The notes below the pieces were generated by a model. That model was not told the DNA's origin, made no database searches, and worked only from the letters and a program-made list of their open reading frames with translations. From Candidatus Electronema halotolerans (GTDB lineage Bacteria > Desulfobacterota > Desulfobulbia > Desulfobulbales > Desulfobulbaceae): a DNA stretch of 32,000 bases. This document shows positions 14,634 to 27,328 of this stretch, piece by piece. Every line of letters starts with the position of its first letter. Within the stretch, counting starts at the first letter, position 1. The translations under genes were made by a program, and so were the position numbers. The stretch spans positions 810,001 through 842,000 of the forward strand of contig OW818675.1 of NCBI GenBank assembly GCA_942493095.1. Reading direction: 5' to 3'.

Positions 14634-15695
14634 ATGAATATATTCTTCAACATAAGCCACCCAGCGCATGTGCATTTTTTTAAAAATGCCATATCAAAAC
14701 TTGAGCAAAACGGGCATAATATCATTGTTGGTGCGCGCAACAAAGAATTCACCATAGAACTGCTCAAAGCATACAATATTCATCATATTATTCTGACTAA
14801 CAAAGGCCAAGGACTGGCAGGACTTGTCAAAGAATTGCTTGTTCAGCAGCTCAAACTATCGAAAATTATAAAGGAACACTCAATAGATATGATGCTGCAA
14901 ATCAGCGGCATCTTCAATGCGCCTGTTGGAAAATGGTACGGCATTCCTACCTTGGCCTTTTCCGACACTGAAAATGATACTTTGGGCAATAAACTTTCTT
15001 TTTCGTTAAGCAGACATGTTCTTTTGCCAACCTGCTTTGATCACCATCGCGGCGGAACTTGGAAAAATCAAATTCTTTATCCGGGCTACCATGAGCTGGC
15101 CTATCTGTCGCCCCGTTATTTTCCTGAAGTAAAATCCGAAAATAAATTTTTGGTCCGTTTTGTTAGCTGGGGCGCAGGCCATGATTTTGGCGAAAAAGGA
15201 CTGACTCTGGCGCAGAAGATTGAGATTGTGAATATTCTCAAGCACTGGGGTGAGGTTTATATTTCCTCAGAAGCACCGCTGCCGGAGAGTCTAACCGAGT
15301 ATGCCTGCACATTTCATCCGGCTGAAGTGCATGATTTTATGAAAGCGTGTACAATGGTGGTGGGAGAATCCGCCACTATGGCTTCCGAGGCTGCTGTTCT
15401 GGGCATACCTGCTGTGTTTATTTCTGACACCGGCAGAGGCTATACGACAGAACAGGACAAAAAATACGGCCTGATCAAGCATTATCAGCGGCATCAATGG
15501 ACAGAAATTGTCGCGACGTTAAAAGAATGGGCAGGGCAAGACTTATCAGCCCAATGGCAGGAAAAACGCCGGAACATGTTGCGGGATAAAATAGAAGTAA
15601 CAGACTGGCTGGTTGATCTGGTTGAGCAATATCCTGACAGCATCCAATCGTCGAAGAACAGAAACTTTGCGAGGTATGCTCTATGTGCGGCATAG
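14634..15695 (+). CDS. DUF354 domain protein (GT-B/epimerase-like fold, glycan biosynthesis context)
   Basis: The N-terminus MNIFFNISHPAHVHFFKNAISKLEQNGHNIIVGARNKEF matches the DUF354 pattern I remember (I..DI..P.HVHFF..ii..L...GHEV). About 350 aa. It overlaps the start of the next gene by 13 nt. Confidence 0.65.
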   Translation: MNIFFNISHPAHVHFFKNAISKLEQNGHNIIVGARNKEFTIELLKAYNIHHIILTNKGQGLAGLVKELLVQQLKLSKIIKEHSIDMMLQISGIFNAPVGKWYGIPTLAFSDTENDTLGNKLSFSLSRHVLLPTCFDHHRGGTWKNQILYPGYHELAYLSPRYFPEVKSENKFLVRFVSWGAGHDFGEKGLTLAQKIEIVNILKHWGEVYISSEAPLPESLTEYACTFHPAEVHDFMKACTMVVGESATMASEAAVLGIPAVFISDTGRGYTTEQDKKYGLIKHYQRHQWTEIVATLKEWAGQDLSAQWQEKRRNMLRDKIEVTDWLVDLVEQYPDSIQSSKNRNFARYALCAA

Positions 15696-17512
15696 CAGGT
15701 ATCTGCCGTCAGGCCGGAATTTCCCAAGCTGATATTAACCAAGTCAAGCAGATGAACACCCTGCAAAAGCATCGGGGGCCTGATGCGGAAGGGCTGTTTT
15801 CTGATTCCTGCGTTGTTCTCGGCCATCGGCGACTGGCCATTATTGATTTGTCAATCGATGGCAAGCAGCCCTTTGCTTCGGATGATGGCCGCTATCAGCT
15901 CGTCTTCAACGGTGAAATCTACAATTACCTTGAGCTGCGGGAGGAATTGAGCCGCCACGGCTGGACATTCAGAACCAAGACAGATACGGAAGTGCTGCTC
16001 AAGGCATATCAGCACTACGGTGAGGAATGTCTGCATCAATTCAACGGCATGTTCGCCTTTGCCATCTACGATACGCAGCAGCAGCGGTTATTTTTGGCAC
16101 GGGATCGGGTCGGGGTCAAACCGCTTTACTATGCTGTTATTGATTCTGCCCTGTATTTCTCTTCTGAGATTAAATCCTTGTGCAGTATTTCGGCAGTCAG
16201 CAGGTCAGTCAATTATCAGGCCCTTTTTGATTACCTTGTCTTTAATCGCACCGATATTTATGACGAAACTTTTTTTCGTGATATAAAGCGCATTCCCAAA
16301 GGCTGCCACGCCTTGTTCGATCAGGATGGACTGCGCATAAGACAATGGTGGAATCCTGAGAAATTTCTCAAGTCAGAAACGGAAGAGCCTGATTCAGAGA
16401 AGATATGCAGAGATATTGAAGAACTTTTTCTTTCATCTGTGCAGCTGAGAATGCGCAGTGATGTTCCGGTCGGTTCTTGTCTCAGCGGCGGGCTGGATTC
16501 CTCGATTATGATCGGTGCGCTGTTTCAGCATTTTGATCTTGGATCGAACTACGCCACTTTCACAGCTTCTTTTCCCGGCCATCCCATTGATGAGACCGGA
16601 TATATTGACAGCCTGAACCGTCAGTATAAATTTCAAAATATCCGCACCTTTCCTGATGCCGACAAGGCATACGACAGTCTGAAAGATTTTATTTATGCCA
16701 ACGATGAGCCAACCACCAATTCCTCTTTTTTTTCCCAGTACGAGGTGATGCGGCTGGCCAAAGAAAACGGTGTGACTGTTTTGTTAGATGGTCAAGGCGG
16801 TGATGAAAGTTTTGCCGGATATCAGTATTTTCAGGGGTTTAATCTGTATGGACTACTGAAGCAAAAAAAAGGAATCCGCTTGACCTCAGAGCTGGCAAGG
16901 AGTATGCTGAGAAAGCAGCATGTGTCTGTGTATCAGACGATACTGTTCCAACTACTGCCGGACCTGCTGAGAAAAAAGGCTCTTCTGAGGATGCTGCCGT
17001 ATATTGAGCAAGAGTTTTTTCACGAATATATAAATCACAGCAGAATATACAAAGAGTTTTTCAATGTCAGCGGACTGAACCAGAGTCTGGTGCGTCATTT
17101 TCAGTATAAACTTGAGCATCTGCTGCGGATGGAAGATCGCAATTCGATGGCCTTCTCGTTGGAAGCCAGAGTGCCGTATCTTGATTATCGTTTGGTTGAA
17201 TATATCTTGGGACTGCCTGAAAACCTGAAAATACAGAACGGGGAAACTAAGTATTTGCAAAAAAAAGCGTTGGGGAAATATACAATTCCTGAGATTCTCC
17301 AGCGAACTGACAAAATTGGCTTCGGGACTCCTGGCGACGAGTGGATGCTGACAGATAAATGGCGGCAGCTTACCAAAAAAAATTATTCTGATTTATCAGA
17401 GACATTTCCAAACATCTTTAAACAAAATGCGCCGTTACCGAAAAAAGGATTTGATCGTTGGAAGATCAATCAACTGTGTACATGGAAAAATATTTTTCAA
17501 GTGAATAGCTGA
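15683..17512 (+). CDS. asnB: Asparagine synthase (glutamine-hydrolysing) family amidotransferase
   Basis: It has the MCGIAG N-terminal nucleophile, RGPD, the LVFNGEIYNY GATase-II blocks and the SGGLDSS PP-loop. In glycan loci such enzymes usually amidate sugar carboxylates rather than make Asn. Confidence 0.88.
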   Translation: MCGIAGICRQAGISQADINQVKQMNTLQKHRGPDAEGLFSDSCVVLGHRRLAIIDLSIDGKQPFASDDGRYQLVFNGEIYNYLELREELSRHGWTFRTKTDTEVLLKAYQHYGEECLHQFNGMFAFAIYDTQQQRLFLARDRVGVKPLYYAVIDSALYFSSEIKSLCSISAVSRSVNYQALFDYLVFNRTDIYDETFFRDIKRIPKGCHALFDQDGLRIRQWWNPEKFLKSETEEPDSEKICRDIEELFLSSVQLRMRSDVPVGSCLSGGLDSSIMIGALFQHFDLGSNYATFTASFPGHPIDETGYIDSLNRQYKFQNIRTFPDADKAYDSLKDFIYANDEPTTNSSFFSQYEVMRLAKENGVTVLLDGQGGDESFAGYQYFQGFNLYGLLKQKKGIRLTSELARSMLRKQHVSVYQTILFQLLPDLLRKKALLRMLPYIEQEFFHEYINHSRIYKEFFNVSGLNQSLVRHFQYKLEHLLRMEDRNSMAFSLEARVPYLDYRLVEYILGLPENLKIQNGETKYLQKKALGKYTIPEILQRTDKIGFGTPGDEWMLTDKWRQLTKKNYSDLSETFPNIFKQNAPLPKKGFDRWKINQLCTWKNIFQVNS

Positions 17513-17521
17513 ACAAGTGCT

Positions 17522-18697
17522 GTGGAATATAAGATAAATAATATATTGACAGATGTTTTGTCTGCTGCTGAATCTCAGGACTACAGCGGATACAGCAAGT
17601 TTGACGCACTCAACAGTCCTGTTTTGAAAAAATTAACGTTTAATAATAAATGGCTGCGATTTTTTTTTACGCAACTTGTCAAAGAGCTGCCCATTAATAT
17701 CAGGCCGTTGCTGCATGTTAAAAAGTCCAAGAATCCAAAAGGAATAGCGTTATTTGCCCGTGCGTATTTTTTTCTCTATCAGCTCACCAATGACACAGAT
17801 TACTTAGAAAAAGGAGAAGCTCTTCTGCAATGGCTGTTGGAACATCCCAGTGCGGACTGCCGGAATCTATGCTGGGGATATAATTTTATCTGGCAAAATA
17901 CGATTTTTCTTCAGGACGAATTTGAACCCAATGCGGTTGTCTCTGTTTTTGTCGGCGAAGCTCTGATGCATGCCTATCGTCTGACAAAAAAAGAACAATA
18001 TCTCAAGGCGGTCTGTTCCGTTACTGATTTCATCGTCAATGACCTGCCGGTTCTTCATGATTCGGAAGATGAACGTGCTATAGCCTATGTTCTGCGTAAA
18101 GTTGATGCCATTGTCCTGAATAATCAAGTTCTGACAGGCACTTTTCTGATAAAGGTCTGGAAAGAAACAGGGGATGAAGAGTTAAAAGAGATTGCTCGCC
18201 GCCAATTCAATTATACAGTAAACCGCCGGACAGAGTATTATGCGTGGTATTACACCTATCCGCACGGAAAGTCGCATATTACGCATGACAATTATCATAC
18301 AGGCGGAATCTTGGACGCTCTGCTTGAATATTACGAAGAAACAAATGATGACAGATATATGCAGGTATATTGGCAAGGATTGAAGTATTATAAAGAGCAT
18401 TTATTTGAGTTGGACGGTGCGCCGCGCTGGATGAATAATAAAAAATATCCTTTTGACATACATGGTTCAGCTCAGGGCATTATATCATTTGCAAAGGCAG
18501 CCCGGCATGATGCCAGCTTAATGGCTCAGGCAAAGCTGATTGCCGATTGGACACTTGCCCATTTATACCGTCCAGAGTCGCATGATTTCGCCTATCGCCA
18601 AGGGCGTTATCTGAAATGGAATTATTCCTTGATGCGCTGGTGCAATGCGTGGATGGCAAGAGCGTTAGGGGAGTTGGAATATGCTGCTGGGGCGTGA
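17522..18697 (+). CDS. Hypothetical protein, probably an (alpha/alpha)6-barrel, weakly glucuronyl-C5-epimerase-like
   Basis: 391 aa with a GTG start. It has repeated helical W/Y-rich segments and a block DIHGSAQGIISFAKAA reminiscent of the C5-epimerase C-terminal family. This is a weak, memory-based call. Confidence 0.4.
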   Translation: MEYKINNILTDVLSAAESQDYSGYSKFDALNSPVLKKLTFNNKWLRFFFTQLVKELPINIRPLLHVKKSKNPKGIALFARAYFFLYQLTNDTDYLEKGEALLQWLLEHPSADCRNLCWGYNFIWQNTIFLQDEFEPNAVVSVFVGEALMHAYRLTKKEQYLKAVCSVTDFIVNDLPVLHDSEDERAIAYVLRKVDAIVLNNQVLTGTFLIKVWKETGDEELKEIARRQFNYTVNRRTEYYAWYYTYPHGKSHITHDNYHTGGILDALLEYYEETNDDRYMQVYWQGLKYYKEHLFELDGAPRWMNNKKYPFDIHGSAQGIISFAKAARHDASLMAQAKLIADWTLAHLYRPESHDFAYRQGRYLKWNYSLMRWCNAWMARALGELEYAAGA

Positions 18698-19466
18698 GCA
18701 AAGACACCATCCGGGCTATTCTTTGCCAGAAAGGATATACATTGCCCTTTTCGGAATGCCCATCATCGGACTGCGCATTCGCGGCAGAAATGTCTTTCAC
18801 CTGATTCCGAAGGATAGAAAATATCACCATATTTTGGATGCCGGTTCAGGGCCGGGAGTCTTTTCCTTTGAACTTGCCCGCCGCTTCCCTGATTCCAAGA
18901 TACTGGGCGTTGATCTGTTAAGCGAATCCATTGCCGCCTGTCAGCATATTGCTGAAAAGACAAATATAACGAATGTGGAGTTCCGGCAGACATCTCTTGA
19001 GCATATAACGGATAAGAACACGTTTGATCTTATTGTCTGTGTCGATATAATGGAGCATATACAGGATGACCTTCGTGCTCTGCAATGTTTGCATGAGGTT
19101 GCGGCTCCGGGCGGAGTGCTGGTGCTGCATGTTCCGGCATTATATCGGCGGTATCCGGTCTGCAAGAAAAGTCTGAATTTTGATGTTGAAACCCATGTCA
19201 GAACAGGTTATGAGCCGCATGAGATTGAAGCAAAAGTGAAACAGGCTGGTTTTTCCATCCGGGAAAGCGGATTCACCTATGGCTTTTGGGAAACATTGGC
19301 AAACAATCTTAGCTATATGATCACCCGCGCCCGAATGCAAAATAAGAAAATTTATGCCTTGGCTTTCCCTTTCTTGCACTTGATATCTCTGCTTGGATAC
19401 AGAGCACGGCCTGCCTCGCTTGGTGCAGGAGTTTTTGTTATTGCGGAAAAAAAGAGTGAATCATGA
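18681..19466 (+). CDS. Class I SAM-dependent methyltransferase
   Basis: Motif I is ILDAGSGPGVFSFELARRF, followed by ILGVDL and DLIVCVDIMEHI. The start is uncertain: 18681 overlaps the upstream gene by 17 nt, and 18756 is an alternative. Confidence 0.8.
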   Translation: MLLGREQRHHPGYSLPERIYIALFGMPIIGLRIRGRNVFHLIPKDRKYHHILDAGSGPGVFSFELARRFPDSKILGVDLLSESIAACQHIAEKTNITNVEFRQTSLEHITDKNTFDLIVCVDIMEHIQDDLRALQCLHEVAAPGGVLVLHVPALYRRYPVCKKSLNFDVETHVRTGYEPHEIEAKVKQAGFSIRESGFTYGFWETLANNLSYMITRARMQNKKIYALAFPFLHLISLLGYRARPASLGAGVFVIAEKKSES

Positions 19467-21631
19467 GACAAGTTGTCCAAAATTTTAAAACCGGTGTTGT
19501 CAGCGTTGAGGACGTGCCAAAGCCCATGTTGCGTCCGGGTTGTGTGCTGGTGAGAAACAGAGCTTCGCTGATCAGCGCAGGAACTGAAGCGGGGACTGTC
19601 AAGCTCGGCAAGATGAGCATGTTGGGCAAGGCGCGGGCACGTCCTGAGCAGGTGGCCAAGGTCTTGCAGGCATTGAAAACTGAAGGAATCGTGGGAACAG
19701 TCAATGCTGTCAATCGATCCCTTGATCTGCCTGTTCCATTGGGATATTCCTGCGCCGGGGTGGTTGAGAGCGCAGCGGAGGACATTAACGACCTACATGT
19801 GGGAACAAGGGTGGCCTGCGGCGGTGGCGGGATGGCAACGCATTCCGATTATGTGGTGATTCCCCGCAACCTCTGCGTCCCGATTCCTGAAAATGTCACC
19901 TTCCAGCAGGCTGCCTTCACCACGGTCGGGGCCATTGCCATGCAGGGTATCCGCATCGCCGACACCAAACTGGGCGAAAATGTGGTTGTGATCGGTCTCG
20001 GCTTGGTAGGACTGCTGACCGTGGAAATCCTCAAAGCCGGTGGCTGTCGTGTTTTCGGCATTGATGTCAATCCGCAGCGGGTGGCTTGGGTCAACGAGAA
20101 CGGCATCTGCCAAGCCTGTGTCCGCAATGCCGCCAGTCTTATTGACGCAGTGCTTGAATTCAGCGGCGGATACGGGGCAGACGCTGTCATCATTGCCGCC
20201 GCAGCAAACAGCAACGATCCAGTGGCATTGGCCGGAGAGCTTGTCCGGTATAAAGGCAGAGTGGTGGTTGTAGGCCGCACAGTCATGGATGCCCCGCGTG
20301 AGACCTATCTCTTTAAGGAGCTGGAATTATGCACTTCTTATGCGTATGGCCCGGGAACAGGTGATGCCAGTTACGAAGTGCAGGGATATGACTATCCCAT
20401 TGGCTATGTGCGCTGGACCGAAAATCGCAACATGGCCTGTTTTTTGGACTTGCAGAAGGAAAACAGAATCAGCTTGGAACAGTTAGTCAGCAATACGTTC
20501 TCTGTGGACGCTGCTCCGGCTGCCTTTGAGGAGCTGACCAAATCGGGCAACCAGAGCATCGGTTTGATTCTGGAATATGAAAATGAGCAGAAAGCTGATC
20601 GGAAAGCACCTGTTGCAGATCATGATAAGGAGGACAGCAACAGGCATCACCGGCCAAGCCTTGCACACCAAGGTAAAATTCGCGTTGGAATTATCGGAGC
20701 AGGCAGTTTTGCCACAAATGTTATTGTTCCATTGCTGGCTAAACGCAATGATATTGCAATCCAAGCAATAGTCTCTGCTAATGGTCTGAAAGCTGCTGCT
20801 TTGGCAAAAAAATATCATATTCCTCAATATGATTCGGATGCAAAGGTCATTCTTGATGCTGACGATATAGATGCTGTTTTCATTTTGACACGCCACGGCA
20901 CACATGCGCCATTTACCCAACGCGCTTTGTTGAACAATAAGCATGTATTTGTGGAAAAGCCCTTGGCTCTCAACGAGCAAGAGTTGGATGCTGTAGTTTC
21001 GGCGCAGAAAACAAGCGGCAAAGTGCTGATGGTTGGGTTCAACCGGCGTTTTTCTCCTTTGGCGCAGAAAATGAAGACGTTTTTTGTGGACCGCTGCCAG
21101 CCGATGATTATCAGTTTCCGTGGCAATGTCGGTTATCGTCCCCCGGAGCATTGGCTGCACGACCCGGTTGACGGCGGCGGCGTTATACTCGGTGAAGCCT
21201 GCCACTATATTGATTTTTGCAGATGGCTGACAGGTTCTCCCATTATCGAAGCAAGCTCCAGATATATAGGAGAAAGCAACACGAAAATCATCCGTGAGGA
21301 TAATGTTGAAATAGCTCTTCGTTTTGAAGACGGTTCTATCGCCAACATATTGTACATATCCAACGGTGCCAGAGGATATTGCCGCGAGTCTTGCGAAGTG
21401 CATTCTGAGTCCAGATCAGCTGTCTGGAAAGATTTTAGGTATGTACAATTAGTGAATGATTTAAAGTTGCCAAAAATCCATCGCAGCTTCTTGTTTCATG
21501 AAAAAGGGTATAAAGAAGAGCTGGATGTTTTTTTTGGAGCCGTGCAGGGAGAAATTGAGATGAAATGGTTAAAAGAACAGATAGATGCATCACAAATGAG
21601 CATTAAAACTGCAATTAATTTTAAGAATTAA
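19463..21631 (+). CDS. Bi-domain oxidoreductase (MDR/zinc-type alcohol dehydrogenase fused to Gfo/Idh/MocA)
   Basis: The N-terminal half is MDR-like with a Rossmann motif VVVIGLGLVGLL. The C-terminal half begins IRVGIIGAGSFATN and contains the Gfo/Idh/MocA-type VFVEKPLAL block. Its ATG overlaps the upstream stop (ATGA). Confidence 0.85.
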   Translation: MRQVVQNFKTGVVSVEDVPKPMLRPGCVLVRNRASLISAGTEAGTVKLGKMSMLGKARARPEQVAKVLQALKTEGIVGTVNAVNRSLDLPVPLGYSCAGVVESAAEDINDLHVGTRVACGGGGMATHSDYVVIPRNLCVPIPENVTFQQAAFTTVGAIAMQGIRIADTKLGENVVVIGLGLVGLLTVEILKAGGCRVFGIDVNPQRVAWVNENGICQACVRNAASLIDAVLEFSGGYGADAVIIAAAANSNDPVALAGELVRYKGRVVVVGRTVMDAPRETYLFKELELCTSYAYGPGTGDASYEVQGYDYPIGYVRWTENRNMACFLDLQKENRISLEQLVSNTFSVDAAPAAFEELTKSGNQSIGLILEYENEQKADRKAPVADHDKEDSNRHHRPSLAHQGKIRVGIIGAGSFATNVIVPLLAKRNDIAIQAIVSANGLKAAALAKKYHIPQYDSDAKVILDADDIDAVFILTRHGTHAPFTQRALLNNKHVFVEKPLALNEQELDAVVSAQKTSGKVLMVGFNRRFSPLAQKMKTFFVDRCQPMIISFRGNVGYRPPEHWLHDPVDGGGVILGEACHYIDFCRWLTGSPIIEASSRYIGESNTKIIREDNVEIALRFEDGSIANILYISNGARGYCRESCEVHSESRSAVWKDFRYVQLVNDLKLPKIHRSFLFHEKGYKEELDVFFGAVQGEIEMKWLKEQIDASQMSIKTAINFKN

Positions 21632-21633
21632 TC

Positions 21634-22767
21634 GTGAATATAGGAATCGAAATTACAAAAGCCCATCATAAAGACGGGGGATTTGGAGTATATCCAAGAA
21701 AGCTGATTAAAAATCTTCTTGAAATAGATAAAAATAATCAATATATTGTTTTTACGTCTAAATTTCTTGATGAGTTAGATGGATTTTCTAATTGCCGTCA
21801 AATATTAGTTCCTTCTTCAGATGGAATAGTTAATTTCTTGAAGTTATATTTCAATTTTAAAAAAATTATAGAAAAATATGATATAGATATCCTGCATCTG
21901 TTAAGCTTGTATGGTATACGTAAAGCACCAAGGTTGACGATATCAACAGTATTTGATCTTCGGCACTTGGCTGTTTCCGGACTAAATGAACGAAAATTCG
22001 GAAAAATCATATATAAATATTGGCTTCCTTATTTACTCAAGCATTCTTGTCATTTTATTGCGATTTCTGAAGAAACGAAGAAAACGATGAAGATGCACTT
22101 TGGTATTTCTGACGACAGGATAACTGTTACGCGTTTGGGACATGAAATATATTTGCCAGATAAATCAGAGGAAATGGCAACAAGGATTTCAGGGAAATAT
22201 TTTATGTGGGTAGGTATGATAACAAAGAGAAAAAATCTTGAAGTTCTATACAGGGCTTTTGCTCAATTTATAGCTTGTCATCCAAAATACAAACTTGTTA
22301 TTGCAGGAAAATTTTTAAACTCTATAGTTGAAGGTAGTCACAAAAAATTAATTCATAATTTAAATATAAAAAGCAGTATCATTTTTACCGGTTACGTTCC
22401 AGATTCTGAACTATACACTTTATACAAAAATTCCGCAGCATTTATATTTCCTTCAATATATGAAGGGTTTGGCATTCCGATAATAGAAGCAATGGCTTTA
22501 GGCACACCAGTGATTACAACTGTTGATGGTGGAGCTACAAAAGAAGTAGCAGGAAATGCCGCTTTATTTTTTAAAAGATATGATGCTGATGAACTTGCAG
22601 AAAGAATGAAAGAAATTATATCTAATGAAACGCTTAGAGACCTGTTAGTAAATAAAGGAAAACAACGAGCTGAATTTTTTTCATGGAAAAAGACAGCAGA
22701 AGTGACTCTTGATGTCTATCGAAAATTGACAACGAGCAATAACAATGATAGTGCATTTTGCTCTTGA
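21634..22767 (+). CDS. Glycosyltransferase family 4 (GT-B, retaining)
   Basis: The C-terminal EX7E-region block is FIFPSIYEGFGIPIIEAMALGTPVITT. 377 aa, with a GTG start 2 nt after the upstream stop. Confidence 0.85.
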   Translation: MNIGIEITKAHHKDGGFGVYPRKLIKNLLEIDKNNQYIVFTSKFLDELDGFSNCRQILVPSSDGIVNFLKLYFNFKKIIEKYDIDILHLLSLYGIRKAPRLTISTVFDLRHLAVSGLNERKFGKIIYKYWLPYLLKHSCHFIAISEETKKTMKMHFGISDDRITVTRLGHEIYLPDKSEEMATRISGKYFMWVGMITKRKNLEVLYRAFAQFIACHPKYKLVIAGKFLNSIVEGSHKKLIHNLNIKSSIIFTGYVPDSELYTLYKNSAAFIFPSIYEGFGIPIIEAMALGTPVITTVDGGATKEVAGNAALFFKRYDADELAERMKEIISNETLRDLLVNKGKQRAEFFSWKKTAEVTLDVYRKLTTSNNNDSAFCS

Positions 22768-22797
22768 GCGGCTTAAAAAAACTACATTGATAACACT

Positions 22798-23475
22798 ATG
22801 AAATTCAATAAGGAGTATTATAAGTCCTATTTAGATATAAACGTTTTTCGTAAGATAGGTAGACGTTTTTTCACCCCTAAAGTATTCGCATTATTTAAAG
22901 TTATTCGGAGTCTCGCACCTGAAGCGAAAGTGCTTGATGTTGGGGCTGGAACTGGAGGTTTTCTTGAGATTATTGAACAGGCCAACCAAAAAATAAAAAC
23001 TTTTGGGATAGACATAGGAAACCCTCCCGTATTTATGAGCAAAGGATTTTTTATTCGAGGTGACATACTCAATTTGCCATTTCAAGATAATTCTTTTGAT
23101 TTAGTGACATGCTCGCATGTGATTGAGCATATTACAGATCCTTTTAATGCGATTGCTGAATTAAAAAGAATATGCAAGCCTGATGGATATATTTATGTTG
23201 AAGTGCCTTCTCATCGATCAGCTTTAATGCCTATTGGTGTCAACTTTTGGGACGATCCAACGCATATTCGTCCATATACTCGTATTTCTTTAAGGAAATT
23301 GTTTGAAATACAAGAGCTGAAAATCATTAAAGACGGGGTTAAGCGATCTTTATCTGGAATTTTTTTTGGCTTTCCCTATATGATAATAGGAAAAATTTTA
23401 AAAGATCCCTTATCAAGGGTAATATTTCCAATATATTTTTTTGGGCTATCTGTATATATTTTAGGAAAAAAATAG
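22798..23475 (+). CDS. Class I SAM-dependent methyltransferase
   Basis: Motif I is VLDVGAGTGGFLE, followed by FDLVTCSHVIEHI and PDGYIYVEVP. Confidence 0.8.
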   Translation: MKFNKEYYKSYLDINVFRKIGRRFFTPKVFALFKVIRSLAPEAKVLDVGAGTGGFLEIIEQANQKIKTFGIDIGNPPVFMSKGFFIRGDILNLPFQDNSFDLVTCSHVIEHITDPFNAIAELKRICKPDGYIYVEVPSHRSALMPIGVNFWDDPTHIRPYTRISLRKLFEIQELKIIKDGVKRSLSGIFFGFPYMIIGKILKDPLSRVIFPIYFFGLSVYILGKK

Positions 23476-23479
23476 ATAT

Positions 23480-24439
23480 ATGACTAACACTTTTCATTTT
23501 ATTAAAAAAAACAAAAAAATCATACAGTCTTTTTCTGGAGCCATCTTAATAGGAATTGTTATATGGCAGTCTAATCCTGAAAAACTTTACAACCAAATAT
23601 TTGATGTTCCACTTTATTATTTAATTCCATGTTTCTTACTATATTACTTACTGGTTACTTTAACATGGGCAGTAGGCATATACTTTCTATTAATAAGAAT
23701 TAAGAAGGATACTTTTTGGAAAATAATTAAGTCCTCTTTTAAATTACAAGTTATTGCAGCTATTACACCAGGACGTTTAGGGGATATAGGACTTTTATAT
23801 TACCTTAAAGGAGAATATACTTCAGGCCAGCTTGGTGCAATATTTTTTATTGACAAATTAATAACACTTGGAATTAATATTGTAATATCAATTATTGGAT
23901 TTGGAATTCTTTTATCTTGGAAGTACGCTGTCGTAATATCATTTTTTTTGATAGCTATATTCTCTTTGCTAATATGTTTTTTGTTTAAGTTTCCTCAAAA
24001 ATTTATCAACTGGGGAATTTTTAAAAATATAATCGTATATCTTCAGGGTTTTCGAGTTGAGTTAAATGCTACGGCGAGAGACATAAAAGGTATAGCAGGA
24101 AATGTAGTCCTGACTCTCGTTCGCTACATTCTTGCTGGAGGCTGTATGCTCTTAGCTCTACTATGGTTTGGACAACATGTTACGTTAATCAACGTTATTC
24201 TGATTCAGGCAGTTGCGCAACTTGCTACTTTTATCCCCTTAACAACTATGGGCCTGGGAGTTACAGAAGCTGTCTGTATCTCTCTTTTTATAACCATAGG
24301 TGTTTCTTCTGAAATGACTTTAGCCGCACTTTTATGGTCCAGAGCAATTTACCTGATGTTTATTGCAGGTATTTATTTATTATGGACAGGAATGCCTGTA
24401 TATTATAAGGTTTTTAAGAAAATAACACCTGCTGAATAG
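23480..24439 (+). CDS. UPF0104 / lysylphosphatidylglycerol-synthase-TM-region (flippase-like) membrane protein
   Basis: 319 aa and polytopic. It has the conserved-looking loops TPGRLGDIGL and IPLTTMGLGVTEAV (the P..GlGv.E pattern of UPF0104). Confidence 0.6.
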   Translation: MTNTFHFIKKNKKIIQSFSGAILIGIVIWQSNPEKLYNQIFDVPLYYLIPCFLLYYLLVTLTWAVGIYFLLIRIKKDTFWKIIKSSFKLQVIAAITPGRLGDIGLLYYLKGEYTSGQLGAIFFIDKLITLGINIVISIIGFGILLSWKYAVVISFFLIAIFSLLICFLFKFPQKFINWGIFKNIIVYLQGFRVELNATARDIKGIAGNVVLTLVRYILAGGCMLLALLWFGQHVTLINVILIQAVAQLATFIPLTTMGLGVTEAVCISLFITIGVSSEMTLAALLWSRAIYLMFIAGIYLLWTGMPVYYKVFKKITPAE

Positions 24440-24470: not shown

Positions 24471-25667
24471 GTGATAATGAGTAATATCAAAAAAACAAAC
24501 ATAATCCTCCGATACTGGCTCCTCGCCCTATCCTTTGCCACAGCCGGCCTCCTGATAGCCCTCTACTCGGCCCACAGCCACTATCAGAACTATACTGATC
24601 CGCTTTACAGCAGCTTCTGCGCGATCAGCAAATCGATCAACTGCGATACGGTCGCCCAAAGTCCTTGGTCGATCATGTTCGGCCTTCCAGTTGCTTGGTG
24701 GGGAGTGCTCTTTTACCTCTTCTTTCTCCTGATCCTGCTGACCGAAAACCGCTCCAACCTTGCCGCATGGCGCGGTTGGCTGCTGGTGATGCTCATCTCT
24801 TCCACAGTGACGCTGGGACTGGCAGTCATTGCAGTCTGGAAAATCAAATCCCTCTGCATTGTCTGTCTGGCCACATACATAGTCACCTTTAGCCTGACCT
24901 ATATCTGCTGGCTCGGTCAGCGGCGGTGCAAGGAAGTCGTCAATAAAGGTGCTGACAATGTCGCGGCTGCATTCAATCTAAAAGACGCGCTGCGCAATTA
25001 CAGTGTTGCCACTGGCGTGTTCTGCATCAGCCTGCTGCTTGTCTTCGGCCTCATGCCCCGCTACTGGCTCCTTTCCGCTGCTGAGAGTGCTGCGGACATC
25101 AGCAATCTGCCGCATGGCCTGACTGAGGATGGTCATCCGTGGATCGGCGCGGAAAAACCGCTCATGACCATCACCCAATTTTCCGACTACCAGTGCTTCC
25201 AGTGCAGCAAGATGTATTTTCTCCTGCGGAATTTTCTGGCAGCGCACCCGGATACCCTCCGCCTTGTCCATCGCCATTATCCCTTGGATCATGAAGTGAA
25301 TTCCATCATTGTGCCAGAACCGTTTCATGAAGGTTCAGGAAAATTGGCTAAAGTTGCTATTTTGGCGGCAATGCGGGATAAATTCTGGCAGACCAATGAC
25401 CTGCTCTATGCAATGATGCGCGGCAAGAACAGCAAGGTTAAAACAATTTCCCTCAAGGAAATTGCTGACAAAACCGGGCTGAACATCAACGAGCTGGCCG
25501 CTGCCCTCACTCATCCTGTCATTCAAGAAAAGCTGCGCCGGGACATCTGGGACGGCATGAAGCTGGGAATAACTGGCACTCCAGCTTTCCTGATTGACGG
25601 CCAAGTCTATCAAGGCCAGATTCCGCCGAAGATTCTCAAGAAGATTGAAGCACTGCCCGGAAAATGA
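24471..25667 (+). CDS. VKOR (vitamin K epoxide reductase-like, DsbB analogue) fused to a DsbA-like thioredoxin domain
   Basis: The N-terminal membrane domain has the VKOR loop cysteines C-x7-C (FCAISKSINCD) and the CxxC in a TM helix (SLCIVCLATY). The C-terminal domain has a CxxC (DYQCFQCS) and a cis-Pro loop (GITGTPAFLIDG). An ATG at 24477 is an alternative to the GTG at 24471. Confidence 0.8.
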   Translation: MIMSNIKKTNIILRYWLLALSFATAGLLIALYSAHSHYQNYTDPLYSSFCAISKSINCDTVAQSPWSIMFGLPVAWWGVLFYLFFLLILLTENRSNLAAWRGWLLVMLISSTVTLGLAVIAVWKIKSLCIVCLATYIVTFSLTYICWLGQRRCKEVVNKGADNVAAAFNLKDALRNYSVATGVFCISLLLVFGLMPRYWLLSAAESAADISNLPHGLTEDGHPWIGAEKPLMTITQFSDYQCFQCSKMYFLLRNFLAAHPDTLRLVHRHYPLDHEVNSIIVPEPFHEGSGKLAKVAILAAMRDKFWQTNDLLYAMMRGKNSKVKTISLKEIADKTGLNINELAAALTHPVIQEKLRRDIWDGMKLGITGTPAFLIDGQVYQGQIPPKILKKIEALPGK

Positions 25668-27328
25668 AACGGCAGCATTTTTTGCAGGCAGCACTTGCGG
25701 TTGTTGTTCTCTGTATTGCCGTGCTTGCCTGCACCCCGCCTTTCAGCCGGGATGCCCTGATTCACCACCTCCAAGTCCCCAAGCTCTATCTCCAGCACGG
25801 CGGCATGTACGAGATTCCTGAATTGAAATTCTCGTATTACCCCATGAATCTGGACCTGCTTTATTTATGGGCCTTATGGTTGGGCAGCGACATTCTGCCC
25901 AAATACATCCATGCAGCCTTTGCCTTGGCCACCGCCCTGCTGCTGCACTGGCATCTGCGCAGACGGCTGTCTGACAGCCACGCTTGGCTGGGTGCATTGT
26001 TTTTCCTCAGCATTCCTATCATTGTCAAGCTGTCGATCACCGTCTATGTTGATCTGGGCTTAGTTTTTTTCAGCACTGCCGCCCTGCTCCTGCTCTTCCG
26101 CTGGCTGGAGACAAAACGGCGGCGTGACCTGCTGCTGGCAGGCATCTGCTGCGGCTTGGGTATCGGCACCAAATACAACGGCCTGCTGGTGCTCTTTATT
26201 CTCACCTTCATGCTGCCGATTCTGTTCATCAGAACTCAGGAGAAAAAACAAGGGACTGCTCGTCCGGCAGTGAAAGCGACAGTGCTTTTCTGCTTTGCCG
26301 CCCTTTTCGCCGCTTCACCGTGGCTGATCAGGAATGCTGTCTGGACCGGCAATCCGCTCTATCCGCTCTATAACGGCTTCTTCAGCCGCATCAGCAGCGC
26401 GGTGTCGGAACAGCAGCAGGTTGATGCTGATGCAAACAACGAGGAAGCAGAGCAGGACAGCACGGTCAAGGGCGTGTTTGCCAGACGATATATTTTATAT
26501 CGGGAAAACATCTGGCAGTTGCTCCTATTGCCAGTACGGATTTTTATCGAGGGACAAGATGGCGATCCCCGCTATTTTGACGGCAGGCTCAATCCTTTTC
26601 TCTTGCTGCTGGCCCTGCTGGCCTTTATTGGTCCGGCAAACCGGCAGGTGCGGCTTGAACAAATCGCTTTGGTCGCTTTCAGCCTGTTTTATTTCCTCTT
26701 TGCCTTCAACACTGGGGTGCTGCGCATCCGCTACTTAGTGCCAATGGTGCCGTGTTTGGTGATTCTCTCTATGCACGGCCTGCGCAATCTGGAGCTGCAG
26801 GCAGAGCGTCATCTGCACTGGCCCCGTCTGCTGACCGCAGTCTGGCTGGTGCCGGTGAGCCTGCTGCTGGCATGGAATGGCAGCTACATCTGGCAGCAGT
26901 TTCAAGAGGTTGATCCTCTCAGTTACATCACAGGCCGTGTGAGCCGGGATGAATACCTGAGCAAAAAACTGCCTGAATATCCGGTCATGCAGTATGCCAA
27001 CCAGAATCTGCCTGCTTCGGCAAAGGTTCTCTGCATTTTTACGGGCAGGCGGGGATATTATTTGGACAGGCCCCAATCTTTTGAAGATTACGGCAACAAA
27101 AACGGTCTGCTGGCTTGGCTGAACAAATCAGGGATGACAGCGGAAGAAATCGGCCAGCGGCTGGCAAAAAAAGGCATCAGCTATCTGCTCATTCGGCGGG
27201 ACTTGCTCTATCAGCAGCTTAACCGGGCAAGCGGCAGCACCCAGCAGCTCTGGCTGGAACTGGAGCGGCAGCATCTGCGACCGCTCTTCTCCAATCGTGA
27301 ATACAGCCTTTATCAGGCAGTTTTCTGA
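25664..27328 (+). CDS. GT-C fold membrane glycosyltransferase (PMT_2/ArnT/GT39-like), no TPR domain
   Basis: 554 aa. TM1 is followed by an acidic loop (PPFSRDALIHH). About 10 or more hydrophobic segments follow, with GIGTKYNG and a soluble C-terminal ~130 aa. Its ATG overlaps the VKOR-DsbA stop (ATGA at 25664-25667). Confidence 0.6.
   Translation: MKRQHFLQAALAVVVLCIAVLACTPPFSRDALIHHLQVPKLYLQHGGMYEIPELKFSYYPMNLDLLYLWALWLGSDILPKYIHAAFALATALLLHWHLRRRLSDSHAWLGALFFLSIPIIVKLSITVYVDLGLVFFSTAALLLLFRWLETKRRRDLLLAGICCGLGIGTKYNGLLVLFILTFMLPILFIRTQEKKQGTARPAVKATVLFCFAALFAASPWLIRNAVWTGNPLYPLYNGFFSRISSAVSEQQQVDADANNEEAEQDSTVKGVFARRYILYRENIWQLLLLPVRIFIEGQDGDPRYFDGRLNPFLLLLALLAFIGPANRQVRLEQIALVAFSLFYFLFAFNTGVLRIRYLVPMVPCLVILSMHGLRNLELQAERHLHWPRLLTAVWLVPVSLLLAWNGSYIWQQFQEVDPLSYITGRVSRDEYLSKKLPEYPVMQYANQNLPASAKVLCIFTGRRGYYLDRPQSFEDYGNKNGLLAWLNKSGMTAEEIGQRLAKKGISYLLIRRDLLYQQLNRASGSTQQLWLELERQHLRPLFSNREYSLYQAVF

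Follow-up and report, generated by a model that had tools for sequence, protein, structure and literature searches.

A VKOR-DsbA fusion and GT-C glycosyltransferases in a conserved type IVa pilin locus of Candidatus Electronema and other Desulfobacterota: a candidate pilin maturation cassette

Background

Type IV pilins of model bacteria rely on the general DsbA/DsbB system of the cell. Substrate-linked Dsb enzymes are also known, among them DsbL/DsbI, which is encoded with AssT, and SrgA, which serves Pef fimbriae. Here we analyze a stretch of 32,000 nucleotides from the genome of Candidatus Electronema halotolerans (contig OW818675.1, positions 810,001 to 842,000; the whole of this stretch is called the window below), in which a gene fusing a VKOR-type disulfide generator to a DsbA domain overlaps a gene for a membrane glycosyltransferase of the GT-C superfamily, downstream of two type IVa pilin genes. 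On the basis of a purely computational comparison, we propose, with a rough probability of 0.6, that the locus serves pilin maturation as a cassette: the VKOR-DsbA protein would introduce the disulfide into pilus proteins, and the pilin would be glycosylated by the GT-C enzymes. The same proposal takes the locus to be the accessory portion of a type IVa pilin operon conserved in Desulfobacterota.

The group IV pilin cassette of Pseudomonas aeruginosa, pilA-tfpW(-tfpX), encodes TfpW, a GT-C pilin D-arabinofuranosyltransferase (bioRxiv 10.1101/2020.04.19.049825). As far as its published description allows the comparison, TfpW resembles the products of two window genes, here called GT-C/TPR proteins because they combine a GT-C membrane domain with tetratricopeptide repeats (TPR): the genes directly follow a pilin gene, loop 1 of the proteins contains a DD motif and their C-terminal part a TPR domain, genes for sugar precursors are found nearby, and the lengths are similar (646 aa for TfpW, 681 and 690 aa here). 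Unlike the Pseudomonas cassette, the window adds the VKOR-DsbA fusion and a second, TPR-less kind of GT-C, and has no TfpX-like gene; domain searches revealed no genes of the D-arabinofuranose pathway in the window. The order of domains, a GT-C membrane domain followed by non-cytoplasmic TPR repeats, is also that of the eukaryotic protein O-mannosyltransferases TMTC1-4, although neither of the two GT-C/TPR proteins of the window matches TMTC_DUF1736 at an E-value of 0.01.

The fusion itself matches by sequence the Synechococcus VKOR chains (PDB 3kp9, 4nv2, 4nv5, 4nv6), and the likeness extends to the VKOR core with its loop cysteines and membrane CxxC, the fifth transmembrane (TM) helix and a periplasmic, fused thioredoxin-fold domain. 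Unlike in Synechococcus, the fused domain is of the DsbA/Thioredoxin_4 type with an inserted helical domain rather than a plain thioredoxin, and the gene is located in a pilin operon. In Actinomyces and Corynebacterium, the MdbA-VKOR pair is needed for the assembly of sortase pili (PMC5478893). The window locus is akin to MdbA-VKOR, DsbL/DsbI and SrgA in that these are oxidases with pilus subunits as main clients, or Dsb pairs encoded beside their client; however, MdbA and VKOR are separate proteins that serve sortase pili and are encoded outside the pilin operon, whereas the window encodes a single fused polypeptide, whose gene shares a type IV pilin operon with glycosyltransferase genes.

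The pilA cluster described in Ca. Electrothrix by Geerlings et al. 2023, with TPR proteins, a methyltransferase, a "phospholipid carrier-dependent glycosyltransferase" and a further glycosyltransferase (PMC10580974), belongs to the same locus family as the window. In that study, the TPR proteins were taken as protein-interaction modules, and VKOR, DsbA and disulfides are not mentioned (PMC10580974). Our search of the literature on VKOR in connection with type IV pilins, cable bacteria or Desulfobacterota, which left most subscription journals outside its reach, returned no description of a VKOR-DsbA protein inside a type IV pilin operon. The cassette is, all the same, a variant of known pilin-modifying kits.

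The VKOR-DsbA fusion and the GT-C gene that overlaps it

The two genes at the center of the locus are:

24471..25667, plus strand: VKOR-DsbA fusion, 398 aa from GTG 24471 or 396 aa from ATG 24477, with five TM helices; assigned by Pfam and PDB sequence matches, invariant cysteines and topology
25664..27328, plus strand: third GT-C of the window, PMT_2 type, 554 aa, no TPR; assigned by Pfam, an AlphaFold2 (AF2) model, Foldseek and invariant D30/H35

An earlier prediction made from the sequence of the window (the original prediction) had placed here a VKOR-DsbA fusion whose stop codon overlaps the start of a 554-aa PMT_2-type GT-C gene, and both parts of that description are borne out. Of the two possible starts of the fusion, ATG 24477 fits the ortholog alignment better than GTG 24471. 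The 398-aa product matches the Pfam families VKOR (PF07884; residues 19-145, 78.5 bits versus a cutoff of 27.5, and 82.1 bits in the genome search), DSBA (PF01323; residues 233-389, 53.5 bits) and Thioredoxin_4 (PF13462; 46 bits), the latter two also above their curated cutoffs, and its DsbA domain shows a weak match to the NCBIfam "thioredoxin-like (seleno)lipoprotein" family. Among PDB sequences, the matches are to VKOR structures and to ScsC/DsbA-like proteins. When the window protein was aligned with nine orthologs (identity down to 37%, residues numbered from ATG 24477), the VKOR loop cysteines C48 and C56 (C-x7-C), the membrane CxxC (C127-I-V-C130), the DsbA active site (C240-F-Q-C243) and the cis-proline T368-P369 were found to be invariant in all 10 sequences. 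Judged from these matches, the protein is a VKOR joined to a DsbA with every catalytic cysteine in place.

Hydropathy and the positive-inside rule yield five hydrophobic segments and K/R-rich loops at residues 1-10, 91-103 and 147-176. The location of these loops on one side places residues 196-398, by prediction, on the outside; the DsbA domain is thus predicted to be periplasmic, as the original prediction required, and so are the loop cysteines and the end of TM4 that bears the CxxC.

The genome (3.2 Mb) encodes one VKOR, namely the fusion, and has genes for two more DsbA-like proteins at other sites; the genome search returned no DsbB, and the fusion is the sole predicted quinone-linked disulfide generator of this organism. 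As a separate observation on DsbA-like proteins, many of the DsbA-like matches in relatives G011, G013, G020, G024, G032, G042, G045 and others contain a single in-frame TGA and may be selenocysteine-containing DsbA-like proteins.

The tetranucleotide ATGA at 25664-25667 holds both the stop codon of VKOR-DsbA and the start codon of the GT-C gene. The 554-aa product scores above cutoff with two Pfam models, PMT_2 (43.2 bits versus 26.1) and PMT (39.4 bits versus 22.7). Its AF2 model (mean per-residue confidence, pLDDT, 87.4; predicted template modeling score, pTM, 0.88) was matched by Foldseek to STT3, AglB, PglB, ArnT, ALG12, DPY19, AftD and Pmt4, with E-values from 2.5e-9 to 1e-4. Across 26 orthologs, D30 and H35 do not vary; both lie just behind the first TM helix, in the first periplasmic loop. 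The polytopic fold, with an acidic residue conserved in this first extracytoplasmic loop, identifies the modeled protein as a member of the GT-C superfamily, and the fold, together with a flippase-like gene in the adjacent sugar island (see below), suggests that the GT-C enzymes use a polyprenyl-phosphate-linked sugar donor.

Closer assignments of the 554-aa protein fared less well. A protein O-mannosyltransferase proper (PMT, GT39) carries MIR domains in a large luminal loop; at an E-value of 0.01 no MIR domain was found in this protein, and the match to the PMT core is limited to N-terminal residues 83-200, so that this assignment was rejected. The curated ArnT (GT83) model gave no match, NCBIfam yielded only sub-threshold matches to generic LA_3751/3752, Agl23-like and LIC_10190 families, and phmmer against PDB sequences, ArnT included, returned nothing at an E-value of 1, such that the likeness to ArnT exists at the level of fold only. 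The idea that the GT-C enzymes themselves need the oxidase was also discarded, since no cysteine is invariant in the alignments of the GT-C or the GT-C/TPR proteins.

Conservation of the gene order

A scan at the species level (one genome per species) recovered 221 relatives of the fusion, and the best 80, from Desulfobulbales and Desulfobacterales and with cultured strains included, were examined; the closest loci are those of Candidatus Electronema, Ca. Electrothrix and Desulfobulbaceae. The GT-C gene is directly downstream of the fusion in 54 of the 77 usable loci and within 5 kb, non-adjacent, in another 14, which means that proximity is kept in 68 loci, each from a different species. This adjacency is far beyond chance, and the conservation among relatives rules out that the two genes are chance neighbors or a pair unique to this genome. 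The overlap of 4 nt recurs in 14 loci. A GT-C/TPR gene is located directly upstream of the fusion in 49 of 73 loci and further upstream in 11, and a pilin with a cysteine at mature position 33 (Cys33) plus a C-terminal cysteine is encoded upstream in 38 of 52. The pair is thus conserved and linked to pilins, as the original prediction had anticipated. Exceptions to the order come mostly from cable bacteria with inserted islands or from frameshifted assemblies; in two loci the order is reversed, GT-C preceding VKOR, with a 4-nt overlap in L015 and a distance of about 70 nt in L094.

Among 60 relatives, the full-length fusion and the GT-C protein occur in the same 14 genomes, encoded next to each other on one strand in 13 of them, one of these 13 with the order reversed. 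In three congeners (G002, G006 and G001), which have no sugar island, the genes for pilin, GT-C/TPR, VKOR-DsbA, GT-C, plsY and asd are contiguous, and the four-gene block of pilin, GT-C/TPR, VKOR-DsbA and GT-C recurs in further genera as well as in two additional families of the phylum. The reconstructed ancestral order is pilin, one to three GT-C/TPR genes, VKOR-DsbA and GT-C. It had been proposed that the pilin originally lay directly before VKOR-DsbA and that an island was later inserted between them; the insertion is supported by the three congeners without the island, whereas the direct contact is contradicted by the one to three GT-C/TPR genes in between.

Cultured carriers of the cassette are Desulfosarcina widdelii PP31, Desulfobulbus rhabdoformis DSM 8777, Desulfobulbus alkaliphilus DSM 24258, Desulfofustis glycolicus DSM 9705 and Desulfoprunum benzoelyticum DSM 28570. 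The cassette was also seen in two metagenome-assembled genomes labeled Cyanobacteriota and Bacteroidales (L041, CALNYB010000016.1, and L102, JAWOBQ010000042.1), one of which carries a fusion 84% identical to that of Electronema; these are probably mis-binned contigs.

Pilins, GT-C/TPR proteins and the sugar-synthesis island

On one strand of the window, the order is pilin 1, a hairpin, two GT-C/TPR genes, pilin 2, eight sugar-related genes, VKOR-DsbA and GT-C. The features upstream of the fusion are:

9199..9639, plus strand: major type IVa pilin 1; leader ends with G, followed by FTLIE; mature Cys33 and Cys107; N_methyl Pfam match
9681..9707, plus strand: terminator-like hairpin with a 12-bp stem and T-tract; consensus scan
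9717..11762, plus strand: GT-C/TPR protein 1, 681 aa, TfpW-like/TMTC-like architecture; TPR Pfam matches, invariant DD
11765..13837, plus strand: GT-C/TPR protein 2, 690 aa, paralog of GT-C/TPR protein 1 (47% identity); TPR matches, alignment
13974..14453, plus strand: pilin 2, AT-rich, mature Cys33 and Cys120; N_methyl match, GC content at third codon positions (GC3) 0.33
14634..24439, plus strand: variable sugar-synthesis island with eight sugar-related genes; Pfam and NCBIfam matches

The major pilin has the hallmarks of type IVa pilins, that is, a prepilin leader, the sequence F-T-L-I-E after the leader glycine with Glu5, a long α1 helix and a β-sheet head. The AF2 model of pilin 1 (pLDDT 90.9) consists of the long α1 helix and a β-sheet, and in a Foldseek search its best matches, weak as they are (top E-value 0.08), are the type IVa pilins FimA, PilE and PAK. 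Each of the two pilins contains exactly two cysteines, in agreement with the original prediction, at C33/C107 and C33/C120 in mature numbering, and both are invariant in 54 ortholog sequences. The usual type IVa disulfide loop, formed by two close C-terminal cysteines, is absent from the window pilins; their layout differs from it, with one cysteine at position 33 on α1 and the other at about 95-120.

GT-C/TPR protein 1 has its TPR Pfam matches in the C-terminal third and gives a weak hhalign profile match to the core of the third GT-C (E-value 2.4e-4, probability 44%), and GT-C/TPR protein 2 has a sub-threshold match to PMT_2 (23.4 bits). The DD pair (D26, D27) after the first TM helix of the GT-C/TPR proteins is invariant in 16 homologs.

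The island encodes a DUF354 protein, an AsnB-type amidotransferase, an alpha/alpha-barrel protein, two methyltransferases, a two-domain oxidoreductase, a GT4 glycosyltransferase and a flippase-like UPF0104 protein. Its first five genes (DUF354, AsnB-type, alpha/alpha-barrel, methyltransferase and two-domain oxidoreductase) recur in other families beside the ortholog of the third GT-C, at 34-71% identity (L025:12694-19745 and L077:8200-13094; in part L024:3-4812). Judged by this recurrence, the five genes are a conserved sugar module of the system and not foreign or random cargo. The base composition had been described as core-like for the VKOR-DsbA/GT-C pair, which is correct: GC3 is 0.63 for VKOR-DsbA and 0.65 for GT-C, close to 0.66 for the core gene plsY; the values of the island are 0.23-0.52. 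Pilin 1, at 0.52, falls in between, and both GT-C/TPR genes and pilin 2 (0.33-0.36) are AT-rich like the island. Because they share its low GC3, the compositionally foreign stretch begins right after pilin 1 and not at 14634.

GT-C orthologs without VKOR and an allele break within the genus

In a sample of 400 genomes from the phylum, GT-C matches with an E-value of at most 1e-20 were obtained in 40 genomes, the present one included (27 of these at 1e-60 or below), and VKOR was found in 48; about six genomes have both, which rules out that the GT-C always needs VKOR. In the VKOR-less genomes, the GT-C ortholog keeps its pilin and GT-C/TPR neighbors, and in some of them it also adjoins the DUF354, AsnB, barrel, methyltransferase and oxidoreductase genes of the island. 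Since these loci retain the pilin, GT-C/TPR and sugar genes, the VKOR-DsbA gene would be a later addition: the older unit, as reconstructed, is a pilin with two kinds of GT-C and sugar genes, to which VKOR-DsbA was added in one part of the family.

A comparison of positions 24477-27328 of the window with two loci of the same genus, L011 (G007) and L012 (G001), reveals an abrupt change at the junction between the two genes. VKOR-DsbA is about 45% identical along its whole length, whereas the GT-C proteins are 71-77% identical from their first residues, a contrast which, at the sequence level, marks the junction as an allele-replacement breakpoint. Given this break, the oxidase is assigned, within Ca. 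Electronema, to a variable pilin-side half of the locus and the TPR-less GT-C to the conserved flank.

The link between oxidase and pilin and a proposed role in pilin maturation

The presence of the oxidase gene correlates with the cysteines of the neighboring pilin. Every pilin in the VKOR-containing loci has C33 and one C-terminal cysteine, whereas the pilins of the VKOR-less GT-C loci mostly have none or one cysteine and C33 occurs in none of them. Among the 60 relatives, the genomes that have the full-length fusion are nearly the same as those that have the GT-C and a full-length pilin ortholog. The pilin orthologs are almost confined to relatives with VKOR; G030, which departs from this, is an assembly of 81% completeness, and its congener G021 shows part of a VKOR where a contig ends.

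The distribution of the oxidases is patchy. The search for DsbB succeeded in only four of 36 genomes of the family and in no genome of Electronema or Electrothrix, and about 19 of the 36, several of which are 97-100% complete, have neither VKOR nor DsbB, although they still hold other DsbA-like genes. With so many members devoid of both, quinone-linked disulfide formation does not look like a housekeeping function of the family and, by its distribution, travels with this pilin type as a pilus-linked accessory. The original prediction would, in its own terms, be refuted if the fusion were the sole general housekeeping Dsb system and had no pilin-specific phenotype; the fusion is indeed the only VKOR in a genome with no DsbB found, but the many close relatives that have neither show that such a system is not a lineage-wide necessity.

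In our best reading, the locus is a pilin glycosylation cassette that includes a "bring your own oxidase" for pilus proteins with disulfide bonds, in a lineage that is often without quinone-linked disulfide formation. The prepilin would insert into the inner membrane and expose its globular domain to the periplasm, where the membrane-tethered DsbA domain (CFQC) would make the disulfide between Cys33 and the C-terminal cysteine of the pilin. Probably, the DsbA domain would also oxidize cysteine-bearing minor pilins and a cysteine-rich PilY1-like protein, and it would be re-oxidized by the VKOR domain, whose loop cysteines and membrane CxxC would pass electrons to a quinone, presumably menaquinone. 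Polyprenyl-phosphate-linked sugars would be made by the enzymes of the variable island and flipped by the UPF0104 protein, and from these lipid-linked sugars the GT-C enzymes would glycosylate the periplasmic part of the pilin. In this scheme, the domains and motifs, the gene order with its conservation and co-occurrence, and the predicted topology are those described above, and the pilin as client and glycosylation target, the quinone and the sugar are assigned to their places by inference. Additional candidate clients are encoded in the genome: two of three minor pilins (around C1:1961506-1963354) have cysteine pairs and the third has three cysteines, and the PilY1-like open reading frame (ORF) that follows them (G000:C1:1964564-1971145) encodes 55 cysteines in 2193 aa. 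Four pseudopilin-like genes (C1:2631175-2632517) encode proteins with no more than one cysteine each.

Several observations weigh against a role in pilin maturation or narrow its scope. The VKOR-adjacent members cluster together in the GT-C tree, and the VKOR-linked loci may stem from one ancestral cassette, in which case the correlation with pilin cysteines may go back to one event kept by selection instead of repeated co-evolution. The more distant orthologs of the third GT-C (L033-L036, L038, L039) have no pilin gene within 10 kb, so that this enzyme may act on a target other than the pilin. In several cable-bacteria loci the pilin is 10-13 kb away. Finally, as the only VKOR in a genome with no DsbB found, the fusion must serve any other envelope disulfide, and the term "dedicated" cannot be taken strictly.

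If pilin maturation is the function, a pilin operon that carries a complete, fused disulfide generator, while many relatives are without one, would represent a natural case of a client locus with its own oxidase. The proposal predicts that PilA, which is reported to exceed all other proteins in abundance in the cable bacterium Ca. Electronema aureum (PMC10580974), is both disulfide-bonded and glycosylated. The presence of the cassette in culturable strains makes genetic work feasible outside the uncultured cable bacteria, and the cassette family offers a set of natural VKOR-DsbA fusions and uncharacterized GT-C enzymes with a likely defined protein substrate.

Alternative explanations

The alternative that survives best, which we consider rather unlikely, is that the fusion acts on all exported proteins as a general oxidase of the envelope and only happens to be sited in a pilin operon, with the third GT-C as a general envelope transferase that has no particular tie to the pilin, either ArnT-like and acting on lipid or lipopolysaccharide or engaged in broad protein O-glycosylation. 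It would account for the fusion being the only VKOR of a genome with no DsbB found, where the two other DsbA-like proteins could act as its partners, and it agrees with ArnT being among the best fold matches of a GT-C which has core-like composition, evolves like the flanking core genes and has distant orthologs without pilin neighbors. Opposed to it are the roughly half of the family that has neither VKOR nor DsbB yet retains other DsbA-like genes, the near confinement of this fusion clade to the pilin operon, in two gene orders, and the exchange of fusion alleles together with the pilin and GT-C/TPR side. The exported proteome also shows no clear bias to even numbers of cysteines (107 even and 97 odd, compared with 569 and 579 among cytoplasmic proteins), a weak form of evidence as the census used a crude home-made signal-peptide rule and greedy ORF calls.

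A wider reading, more doubtful still, takes VKOR-DsbA and the TMTC-like GT-C/TPR protein as a portable periplasmic module for oxidative folding and O-glycosylation from lipid-linked sugars, similar in function to the endoplasmic reticulum, of which the pilin operon would be only the commonest client, with anaerobic Desulfobacterota attaching the module to client loci. This reading draws on distant VKOR-DsbA fusions (22-30% identity) that occur in other families with no pilin nearby (L124:7259-10695, L129:1503-4408, L130:6045-9378, L121:386-4366). In L124, L129 and L130 the fusion overlaps a GT-C/TPR gene, in L121 such a gene is close by, and the GT-C/TPR neighbor in L129 passes the TMTC_DUF1736 cutoff (29 bits versus 27).

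The original prediction had suggested, in its strongest form, a coupled step of oxidation and glycosylation, which would imply a physical complex of VKOR-DsbA and the downstream GT-C with translational coupling setting the stoichiometry. We regard this as improbable. The adjacency in 54 of 77 loci and the 4-nt overlap in 14 loci and in one locus of reversed order are what it would lead one to expect, and the distant pilin-less clades that abut GT-C/TPR genes, or have one nearby in L121, can be read in the same direction. However, some loci and genomes have a GT-C ortholog but no VKOR, in 14 loci the two partners are kept apart by other genes, and VKOR-DsbA alleles of about 45% identity beside GT-C proteins of 71-77%, with the break at the junction, argue against a co-adapted interface; the strong form of the claim is not sustained.

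That the cassette matures a structure specific to cable bacteria, such as the periplasmic conductive fibers or their sheath, instead of a pilus is very improbable: the role of the abundant PilA of Ca. Electronema aureum has been called unclear (PMC10580974) and the fiber sheath contains protein on a polysaccharide-rich layer (PMC8238962), but the cassette is widespread in unicellular sulfate reducers, for example Desulfosarcina, Desulfobulbus, Desulfofustis and Desulfosudis, and the fiber study itself argues against pilin as a main fiber component (PMC8238962).

Boundaries of the unit

Downstream of the third GT-C, the unit is ended by the convergent genes plsY and asd, the 3' end of the GT-C gene overlapping plsY by 16 nt. 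The GC-rich hairpin at 9681-9707, which lies 3' of pilin 1 and 5' of the start of the first GT-C/TPR gene, is the best-scoring terminator-like site between positions 8900 and 27600, and its placement suggests that it may provide attenuation between the pilin and the enzymes.

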